Positions 17,901 through 19,225 of a DNA stretch of 64,000 nt are shown here, piece after piece (the first letter of the stretch is position 1; every line of letters begins with the position of its first letter). The stretch lies in assembly GCF_003334405.1 (NCBI RefSeq), contig NZ_QOWM01000003.1. One strand, 5' to 3'. A program made the position numbers. The DNA comes from Escherichia coli. GTDB lineage: Bacteria > Pseudomonadota > Gammaproteobacteria > Enterobacterales > Enterobacteriaceae.

Positions 17901-19225
17901 CTACAAAGCTGGCATGGCACGCCGTATCGTTATGGTGGCATGACGCGGCGCGGTGTGGACTGTTCGGGATTTGTGGTTGTGACGATGCGCGATCGTTTCG
18001 ATTTGCAGCTGCCCCGTGAAACCAAACAACAAGCCTCTATTGGCACGCAAATTGATAAAGACGAGTTGCTGCCAGGTGACCTGGTCTTTTTCAAAACGGG
18101 GTCCGGACAAAATGGTTTGCATGTAGGTATTTACGATACCAACAACCAATTTATCCACGCCTCTACCAGCAAGGGAGTGATGCGTTCCTCACTTGATAAT
18201 GTCTATTGGCAGAAAAATTTCTGGCAGGCGAGACGAATCTAGTATGTCGAAAAATGGACGGCGATGATACATCGCCGTCCATTTACTCCTGAATACAGTA
18301 GTATTTTGCAGACAAAAATTCCGTAAATGGATTATTCGTTTATAATCAGGATAATCTAAAAAAAGGACCCCTGAAAAAGTGGTTAACATGGAACAAATGA
18401 AAGTTACTCCTTCTGTAATTGTTATGTCTTATGGCCTCATCCCTTTTAGCCGGATACTGAAAAACATCCTTCGAGAGGGACGGTTACCATGAAGATTTTT
18501 TTGGAGAATCTTTATCATTCTGATTGCTATTTCCTGCCGATAAGAGACAACCAGCAAGTCCTTGTCGGCGTTGAGTTAATTACCCATTTCTCCAGTGAAG
18601 ATGGTACGGTTCGTATCCCGACGAGTCGGGTTATAGCGCAACTTACCGAGGAGCAACATTGGCAATTATTTTCAGAGCAGTTGGAATTACTAAAATCATG
18701 CCAACATTTTTTTATTCAACATAAACTCTTTGCCTGGCTTAATTTAACGCCACAAGTGGCTACATTATTATTAGAGAGGGATAATTACGCAGGCGAACTA
18801 TTAAAATATCCGTTTATTGAACTGTTGATTAATGAGAATTACCCGCATCTCAATGAAGGAAAAGATAATCGCGGTCTTTTATCCTTATCGCAAGTGTATC
18901 CCCTTGTGTTAGGTAATTTGGGAGCAGGCAATAGCACAATGAAAGCGGTTTTTGATGGTCTTTTCACCCGCGTCATGCTGGATAAAAGTTTTATTCAGCA
19001 ACAAATCACGCACCGCTCCTTCGAACCGTTTATTCGTGCGATCCAGGCGCAAATTTCCCCTTGTTGCAATTGCATCATTGCGGGAGGCATTGATACGGCA
19101 GAAATATTGGCACAGATTACCCCCTTCGATTTCCATGCTCTCCAGGGATGCCTGTGGCCTGCCGTTCCCATAAATCAGATAACGACGTTGGTTCAGCGAT
19201 AACCCTTCTGTTTGCTGGTGTTTAA

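Follow-up and report, generated by a model that had tools for sequence, protein, structure and literature searches.

The AT-rich flagellar regulator gene ydiV of Escherichia coli is a vertically inherited core gene with a candidate upstream open reading frame

Introduction

In Escherichia coli, the flagellar master activator FlhD4C2 is a target of YdiV, a degenerate EAL-domain protein that neither binds nor hydrolyses cyclic di-GMP (c-di-GMP). YdiV binds FlhD and keeps FlhD4C2 off DNA (PMC3510510). That the protein does not bind or hydrolyse c-di-GMP is also stated in a review (PMC10333796). E. coli YdiV turns noise in the level of FlhDC into pulses of class 2 flagellar expression (PMC7002133) and, together with SlyD, acts on Fur (PMC7515728). 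Here, we describe the ydiV gene in a stretch of E. coli DNA 64,000 nucleotides (nt) long (RefSeq assembly GCF_003334405.1, contig NZ_QOWM01000003.1), called the window throughout. The original prediction, made from the sequence of this window, took ydiV to be an AT-rich gene whose known biology fits a horizontally acquired regulator. We find a core gene, inherited vertically, of persistently low guanine and cytosine (GC) content. Its translation is probably gated by an upstream open reading frame (ORF).

Related systems have been described in Salmonella, which encodes YdiV (STM1344) and the paralogue STM1697 (PDB 5HXG). Like YdiV of E. coli, both are degenerate EAL-only anti-FlhD4C2 factors. 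STM1344 is 52-53% identical to E. coli YdiV, and STM1697 matches it with an E value of 1.6e-21. The gene for STM1344 occupies the same nlpC-ydiV-selO locus and has the same upstream ORF geometry, with a TAATG overlap. Control of ydiV differs between the two organisms. Briefly, H-NS footprints on and silences the 313-bp Salmonella ydiV promoter, where CadC displaces H-NS in acid; the Salmonella promoter is thus bound by H-NS and CadC, while the E. coli promoter reportedly is not (PMC9728131). Furthermore, E. coli ydiV is reportedly transcribed yet poorly translated, unlike the Salmonella gene, which is well translated (PMC4173784; PMC4066749). Nutrients are reported to act on Salmonella YdiV post-transcriptionally, and CsrA regulates YdiV translation, binding near a Shine-Dalgarno (SD) sequence (PMC4173784; PMC4066749).

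PdeH (YhjH) is a catalytic counterpart. This stand-alone E. coli EAL phosphodiesterase belongs to the same fold family, provides the closest curated family match to YdiV (NF008617) and also acts on motility. PdeH keeps the DDFG, K and EGVE elements, where YdiV has G-N, M and G. The effect of YdiV on motility is opposite to that of PdeH and is exerted by protein-protein binding (PMC3510510).

The ydiV gene of the window matches that of E. coli K-12 in all 237 encoded residues, in its neighbours and in its annotation. The conserved upstream ORF described below is absent from the current annotation. A similar arrangement is reportedly found at uof-fur of E. coli. There, an ORF of approximately 30 codons is said to end at or over the start codon of the regulator, with translation of the leader setting regulator synthesis. 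For ydiV, coupling of this kind is suggested by comparative sequence evidence, and the candidate inputs are CsrA, at a GGA motif, or nutrient state.

ydiV encodes a degenerate EAL-domain protein

The window corresponds to the E. coli chromosome from hxpB to ydhR. It is collinear with a RefSeq chromosome and gene coordinates transfer exactly. The genes of immediate interest are as follows.

18489-19202, + strand: ydiV (current K-12 name rflP, b1707), an ATG-initiated ORF of 237 codons encoding a degenerate EAL-domain protein, the anti-FlhD4C2 factor
17778-18242: nlpC, the upstream neighbour of ydiV
19265-20701: selO, the downstream neighbour of ydiV

Over its 237 amino acids, the ydiV product shows 100% identity to the E. 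coli YdiV of two crystal structures (PDB 3TLQ chain A and 4ES4 chain A; E 8e-162). Of these, 4ES4 is the complex of YdiV with FlhD. RefSeq labels the gene anti-FlhDC factor, and the curated K-12 record carries the name rflP and the number b1707. We conclude that the feature is the chromosomal core gene ydiV/rflP, and that the gene as flagged was already known. Confirming a textbook gene adds little in itself. The original prediction had placed the ORF at 18489-19202 and held that its product lacks c-di-GMP phosphodiesterase activity and acts against FlhD4C2. The position is correct and both functional statements agree with the literature (PMC3510510), with the loss of catalytic positions and with the presence of FlhD-contact residues, as set out below.

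The EAL signature of YdiV is weak. Pfam EAL (PF00563) matches residues 14-222 with an E value of 1.6e-7 (31.4 bits). The sole NCBIfam match is the PdeH equivalog NF008617, at 48.8 bits compared with a cut-off of 190. We aligned a profile of 24 YdiV orthologues with solved catalytic EAL domains and with E. coli PdeL, PdeH and PdeK; for these three proteins, hhalign returned a probability of 98.5%. Residues D295, D296, K316, E352 and Q372 of RocR align with G142, N143, M163, G199 and Q219 of YdiV, respectively. The same substitutions, affecting the Asp pair of DDFG, the catalytic Lys and the Glu of EGVE, appear in the profile-profile alignment with PdeL, PdeH and PdeK. The Glu of the EAL motif is retained as E29 (in ELI), the Arg of EALxR is replaced by H33 and a further conserved Glu by T53. 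The Asn of NxS is retained as N85, as is Q219. Assignment of the ExTE Glu is ambiguous: the position corresponds to L113 according to HMMER, to N117 according to hhalign, or to E111, and both E111 and E116 are conserved nearby. In total, YdiV keeps three of the ten canonical catalytic residues (E29, N85 and Q219) and has clear replacements at six; the remaining position is uncertain.

The Pfam match, the three retained residues, the conservation of E111 and E116, and a ligand groove that persists in the crystal structure might be taken as signs that YdiV still works as a c-di-GMP phosphodiesterase or receptor. This is scarcely credible, and the least probable of the readings considered here. 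The DDFG Asp pair, catalytic Lys, EGVE Glu and EALxR Arg have given way to other residues, both in E. coli YdiV and throughout a set of 84 orthologues. In this set, the positions of the DDFG Asp pair, the Lys and the EGVE Glu hold A/T/G/S, N, a hydrophobic residue and A/S, and the catalytic residues are never restored as a set. The score lies far below the PdeH family cut-off. Consistent with this, neither binding nor hydrolysis was found in the experiments cited by PMC3510510 and PMC10333796.

The YdiV-FlhD interface involves F155, F168, F181 and A184 (PMC3510510). All four residues are present in YdiV from the window. Over the 84 orthologues (83 aligned residues), position 155 is F in 66 and Y in 15, F168 and F181 are each found in 83/83, and A184 in 78/83. 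Unlike the catalytic set, these contact positions are conserved in the family. The picture that emerges is of a protein that keeps the TIM-barrel-like EAL fold without its metal-binding and catalytic residues, and so does not turn over c-di-GMP. According to the literature, a remodelled helix (approximately residues 155-190) binds the FlhD subunit of FlhD4C2. Published work further shows that FlhD-bound YdiV keeps the master activator away from class 2 flagellar promoters and, in Salmonella, hands FlhD4C2 to ClpXP.

ydiV is an AT-rich gene at a fixed locus

The original prediction described ydiV as AT-rich relative to btuD, nlpC and selO, and calculation of GC content and codon adaptation bears this out. 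The GC content of ydiV is 42.3%, compared with 55.1% for btuD, 49.7% for nlpC and 52.8% for selO. As a reference, we took the 51 genes that are annotated in the window and measure 300 nt or more (mean 50.5%, standard deviation 3.4). Against these, ydiV has a z score of -2.4, second lowest after ydiP. At the first, second and third codon positions (GC1, GC2 and GC3), the values for ydiV are 50.8, 33.2 and 42.9%, which are 7.6, 6.9 and 10.0 points below the gene mean. Since the deficit extends to all three positions, amino-acid composition and synonymous codon choice both contribute. In the protein, L, Q, I, F and N are abundant and A, G, V and R are scarce. The codon-adaptation index, calculated with nine highly expressed window genes as reference, is 0.387, the lowest of the 51. 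The AT-rich tract extends into the 246-nt nlpC-ydiV spacer (38.2% GC). On the scale of the whole 64 kb, 8% of all 714-nt segments are at least as AT-rich as ydiV, and several sites equal or exceed it. We conclude that ydiV is a genuine compositional outlier of moderate size.

Two other AT-rich features of the window are of note. The sole gene with a lower GC content than ydiV is ydiP, which encodes an AraC-family regulator (31208-32119, + strand; GC 42.0%, GC3 39.5%). Separately, the frameshifted type III effector-like pseudogene espL1 (approximately 5516-7415, - strand) lies within the longest stretch of AT-rich sequence in the window, where every 714-nt segment starting anywhere from 5094 to 7448 is at or below 42.3% GC. 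If foreign DNA is sought here, espL1 is a stronger candidate than ydiV.

All but three of 5426 complete E. coli genomes (5423) carry the ydiV locus. We also scanned one genome per species, which gave 80 loci, and used the 75 in which nlpC, ydiV and selO are all complete. The 75 represent approximately 17 genera of Enterobacteriaceae. The 80 loci are from Escherichia, Salmonella, Citrobacter, Intestinirhabdus, Enterobacter, Lelliottia, Kosakonia, Phytobacter, Trabulsiella, Silvania, Pseudenterobacter, Huaxiibacter, Dryocola, Buttiauxella and Siccibacter. The order nlpC-ydiV-selO, on a single strand, is found in 75/75. In exact-protein look-ups, orthologues from Salmonella, E. fergusonii, Citrobacter, Yokenella, Lelliottia and Buttiauxella share the gene context pheT-ihfA-btuCED-nlpC-ydiV-selO. 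Trees of YdiV, NlpC and SelO were built by neighbour joining and are thus distance-based, with no support values; they agree on the major groups and are broadly congruent. We conclude that ydiV has been inherited vertically, at one fixed locus, throughout Enterobacteriaceae sensu stricto.

The low GC content travels with the locus. In all 75 cases ydiV lies below both neighbours, with a mean deficit of 6.0 points relative to nlpC and 10.9 points relative to selO. Hence, the deficit is a long-standing property of the gene and not the scar of a recent entry that has yet to ameliorate. A deficit of 6-11 points at one locus in 75 species and approximately 17 genera also means that composition alone cannot prove import. 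In this sense, ydiV is an example of a gene for which low GC content and poor codon adaptation are insufficient to call horizontal acquisition.

These data bear directly on the claim that ydiV is a horizontally acquired regulator. For a recent event, in which a foreign AT-rich ydiV would have entered the E. coli lineage and not yet ameliorated, the claim is not supported. What speaks for such an event is a GC content 8 points below the local gene mean, the lowest codon-adaptation value in the window, the 49-54% identity of YdiV to the proteins of Salmonella, Citrobacter and E. fergusonii, and the occurrence of distant EAL-only genes (27-29% identity) on approximately 231 plasmids. The gene is nevertheless near-universal in E. 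coli, sits at the same place in 75/75 species with the GC deficit in every one, and has a tree that broadly tracks those of its flanking genes. Its ratio of nonsynonymous to synonymous substitution rates (dN/dS), at approximately 0.1, indicates long-term constraint. The annotation of the matching RefSeq record, followed for 19 kb to each side of ydiV, shows neither mobility genes nor tRNAs, the one exception being the distant espL1 pseudogene; no integrase, transposase or tRNA is annotated beside ydiV, although no dedicated repeat scan was made. Plasmid records more than 95% identical to YdiV are 0.42-4.9 Mb in size and look like chromosomal sequence filed as plasmids. Synteny and distribution effectively refute recent acquisition, which we regard as very improbable.

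Local variation in the arrangement was also seen. In E. coli M159-1 (NZ_CP058719.1, 3593652-3595450), the nlpC-ydiV spacer and ydiV match in two pieces, with an IS1B transposase annotated beneath the match. The pattern is that of an IS1 copy inserted into ydiV or beside it. In Buttiauxella, an additional LacI-family regulator gene lies between nlpC and ydiV (locus L008, 4859-5833). The nlpC-ydiV spacer, usually of approximately 250-330 nt, is also enlarged, to 1168-1843 nt, in Dryocola, Siccibacter and one genome labelled Enterobacter (loci L078, L080, L081, L083, L085 and L087-L090). An exact look-up of E. coli IhfA returned ten places, all in E. coli-like contexts, and gave nothing on empty nlpC-selO sites.

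ydiV evolves faster than its neighbours

The median identity of orthologues to the E. coli protein is 48% for YdiV, compared with 82% for NlpC and 79% for SelO. Outside the E. coli clade, YdiV is 40-54% identical, whereas the neighbours are approximately 80% identical. Within Escherichia, the values are 73-82% for YdiV and 97-98% for NlpC. Estimates of dN/dS are 0.10-0.13 for ydiV, 0.01-0.02 for nlpC and 0.05-0.06 for selO. Hence, ydiV diverges several-fold faster than its neighbours, yet is under purifying selection.

Three further observations concern divergence in this part of the chromosome. First, when E. coli is compared with other species of Escherichia (L011-L015), synonymous divergence (dS) at nlpC, ydiV and selO is high, at 0.6-1.5, and may be more than expected for such pairs. 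Second, the E. fergusonii block btuC-btuD-nlpC-ydiV-selO-hemP-aroH-ppsR (L006 3480-10707, compared with 15357-23064 of the window) is 59-82% identical to E. coli at the nucleotide level, as diverged as Salmonella. The adjoining pheT and ihfA genes are 96.5-97.7% identical to E. coli, and btuE is missing there. This suggests that a block of at least 8 kb was replaced by recombination in one lineage. The aberrance covers the whole block and not ydiV alone. Third, SelO of Citrobacter koseri (L082 3062-4510) is 59-62% identical to E. coli SelO, compared with 82-85% for other Citrobacter, and has a very long branch in the SelO tree.

The low GC content of ydiV most likely results from low expression with weak codon selection, AT-biased mutation and a protein rich in L, I, F, N and Q. 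In Salmonella, selection for silencing by H-NS may add to this effect. An ancient acquisition would offer a different explanation. Here, the ancestor of Enterobacteriaceae sensu stricto would have gained an EAL-only gene at the nlpC-selO junction, and selection for H-NS-type silencing would have kept it AT-rich. Several observations fit. All orthologues found are within Enterobacteriaceae sensu stricto (including those among the best 120 of 223 matches in a wide search), and the best Yersinia homologue is just 22% identical (PMC4563271). H-NS silences the Salmonella promoter, with CadC as counter-silencer, and the GC deficit persists without amelioration in 75/75 genomes. The subfamily is also mobile on plasmids. 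As for the other side, duplication and divergence of a resident EAL gene is equally possible, with PdeH as the closest catalytic relative, and the reported failure of H-NS to bind the E. coli promoter does not fit. Moreover, a deficit over all codon positions, fast evolution and weak codon adaptation are such that mutation bias under weak selection would suffice. On balance, we place ancient acquisition on the unlikely side. AT-richness as a sign of horizontal transfer is not supported for a recent event; an older one is possible given the Yersinia value and the plasmid-borne relatives.

The wide search was a profile search of a collection of 5.8 billion proteins. Among the best 120 of 223 matches, the named ones are from Enterobacteriaceae, and the known distribution was not widened. 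One match among these 120 is labelled Vagococcus and is probably a mislabel. The plasmid-borne relatives are EAL genes that stand alone; they align with 90-97% of the length of YdiV, at 27-29% identity. E. coli and E. albertii are the source of most of the approximately 231 plasmids that carry them, and many of these plasmids are conjugative. A review likewise notes horizontal transfer within the YdiV-like EAL subclass (PMC10333796).

A conserved upstream ORF precedes ydiV

The region between nlpC and ydiV contains the following features.

18243-18488, + strand: nlpC-ydiV spacer, 246 nt, the putative ydiV promoter region and leader
18397-18492, + strand: unannotated upstream ORF, listed mechanically, with 31 codons (MKVTPSVIVMSYGLIPFSRILKNILREGRLP) and a TGA stop that overlaps the ydiV ATG as ATGA
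18388 (ATG) and 18379 (GTG), + strand: alternative in-frame starts of the upstream ORF
18390-18393, + strand: SD-like GGAA before the upstream ORF, probably also an A(N)GGA-type motif of the kind bound by CsrA
18473-18480, + strand: SD-like GAGAGGGA of ydiV itself, read from the sequence, inside the 3' end of the upstream ORF

We compared 70 distinct sequences upstream of ydiV from approximately 17 genera. In 57/70, an ATG codon sits exactly 92 nt ahead of the ydiV start. The frame of the upstream ORF is open for 30 codons in 63/70, compared with 5/70 and 8/70 for the other two frames. Summed over the 70 sequences, there are 15 stop codons in this frame and 198 and 97 in the others. When the upstream sequences were shuffled, the frame was open 17% of the time. 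All 57 canonical upstream ORFs end on the ydiV start codon, as ATGA in 52 and as TAATG or TGATG in 5. A GGA or GGG lies 4-12 nt 5' of the -92 codon in 62/70, with the consensus A.GGaAa.aATGAA. The cross-genus consensus also shows GcGGGGC conserved at positions -14 to -8 of ydiV. No frame-shifting indels occur in 57/70. The body of the ORF is merely 25-65% identical between genera. Hence, the frame has been held open through extensive substitution.

A functional small protein is an unlikely product, since in-frame dN/dS is 0.6-0.84 and equals that of out-of-frame controls. If the peptide is free to vary, it is the act of translating the upstream ORF that would matter. The simplest reading, which we infer from the comparative evidence, is a leader ORF translationally coupled to ydiV. 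The conserved ORF of 30-31 codons would then probably gate ydiV at translation, and ribosomes finishing it would deliver or unmask initiation at ydiV. Put more fully, a previously unannotated leader ORF, found throughout Enterobacteriaceae, would set YdiV synthesis by being translated and not through its peptide. It could act through termination-reinitiation, or its translation could unmask or occlude the site at which ribosomes bind ydiV. The leader ORF may then be the missing cis element behind the three reports on translation, namely those concerning nutrients, CsrA and poor translation in E. coli. We put this fuller proposal forward tentatively, at somewhat less than even odds.

The frame might instead be untranslated. 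A conserved regulatory element in RNA or DNA, made up of promoter-proximal sites, a CsrA site and the region of the ydiV ribosome-binding site, could by accident lack stops in one frame. The peptide is not under purifying selection, there is no codon periodicity and third positions are, if anything, more conserved, as such an element would have it. The leader is also constrained at the nucleotide level: its substitution rate of approximately 0.2 per site is 3-5 times below the dS of ydiV in the same genome pairs. An accident of this type sits poorly with a frame open in 63/70 (5 and 8 for the others) despite a body identity of 25-65% between genera, with the 15 stops against 198 and 97, and with the 17% of shuffled sequences that are open. 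It sits poorly, too, with the joint conservation of the -92 ATG, the SD-like GGA and the stop-start overlap, and with a frame free of shifting indels in 57/70. We consider an untranslated frame unlikely, and prefer translational coupling of the leader ORF to ydiV.

The upstream ORF is annotated in neither the RefSeq nor the MG1655 record. In public protein collections, it appears as sporadic automatic calls without a curated name. Our literature search found no paper in which an upstream ORF, or a leader peptide of relevance, is linked to ydiV; the primary papers of Wada and of Takaya fell outside this search, so a prior description is possible. The upstream ORF is thus possibly a new item, and may be a candidate for the reported translational control of ydiV. 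It offers a concrete, mutable target for asking why YdiV is set at translation by nutrients and CsrA, and why E. coli translates ydiV poorly. Translational control of YdiV bears on the choice of enteric bacteria to build flagella. The locus gains somewhat in value from the AT-richness that persists across the family and, chiefly, from the upstream ORF, since they offer direct access to how translation controls a key flagellar switch.

Support for the combined interpretation

Taken together, the best explanation of the data is that ydiV/rflP is a degenerate EAL core gene, inherited vertically, with persistently low GC content and probable gating by an upstream ORF. We assign this combined interpretation a probability of roughly 0.88. 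A number of observations weigh against it. For the upstream ORF, in-frame dN/dS is no different from that of out-of-frame controls and codon periodicity is lacking. E. albertii and approximately six other species do not have the canonical geometry. Most of these exceptions have variant upstream ORFs, with 33 codons in Buttiauxella and Dryocola and, in E. albertii, a 25-codon frame that ends 16 nt early. A conserved leader RNA structure was not found; applied to 24 diverse leaders, RNAalifold gave no more than three base pairs, all weak, between CCC and the GGG in the SD of ydiV. For the origin and low GC content of the gene, the study that shows H-NS binding in Salmonella reports no binding to the E. 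coli ydiV promoter in an electrophoretic mobility shift assay (PMC9728131), and ydiV may have been acquired horizontally long ago, at the root of the family. For the EAL domain, our alignment keeps three of ten catalytic positions and leaves a further one ambiguous, whereas two are retained according to the structure paper, which counts 8/10 as lost (PMC3510510). The N-terminal half of our alignment depends on a single profile-profile comparison.

Other features of the locus and window

The nlpC-ydiV spacer has a mean column identity of 90% among six Escherichia species, although dS in the flanking genes is 0.6-1.4. A stem-loop lies at its 5' end.

18252-18284, + strand: 15-bp stem-loop right after the nlpC stop codon, with no U-run 3' of the stem-loop

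The stem-loop folds with -27 kcal/mol (z = -6.7), and none of 200 shuffled sequences folded as well. In other Escherichia, changes in the arms preserve pairing, as judged by eye on the alignment. It is a possible terminator or stabiliser of RNA ends, and may limit or process read-through from nlpC into ydiV. The E. coli leader as a whole folds no better than shuffled sequences (z = -0.5). Given this value and the three weak pairs from RNAalifold, we do not claim a hairpin that sequesters the ydiV SD.

A promoter scan gave no convincing sigma-70 site on the + strand of the spacer. The sequence TATAAT at 18341-18346, picked out by eye, is without a good -35 element and was not retained as a feature. 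Two antisense ORFs, at 18909-19136 and 18189-18389, were set aside as being without support. An Rfam scan placed no family in the spacer. Elsewhere in the window, matches above the gathering score are STnc540 at 15198-15356 (+ strand) in the ihfA-btuC spacer, RprA at 40030-40137 (- strand) and rydB at 45741-45801 (+ strand). Further Rfam matches are the Phe leader at 11233-11357 (+ strand) and a tRNA overlapped by a match to the antisense RNA HPnc0260 at 63793-63993.

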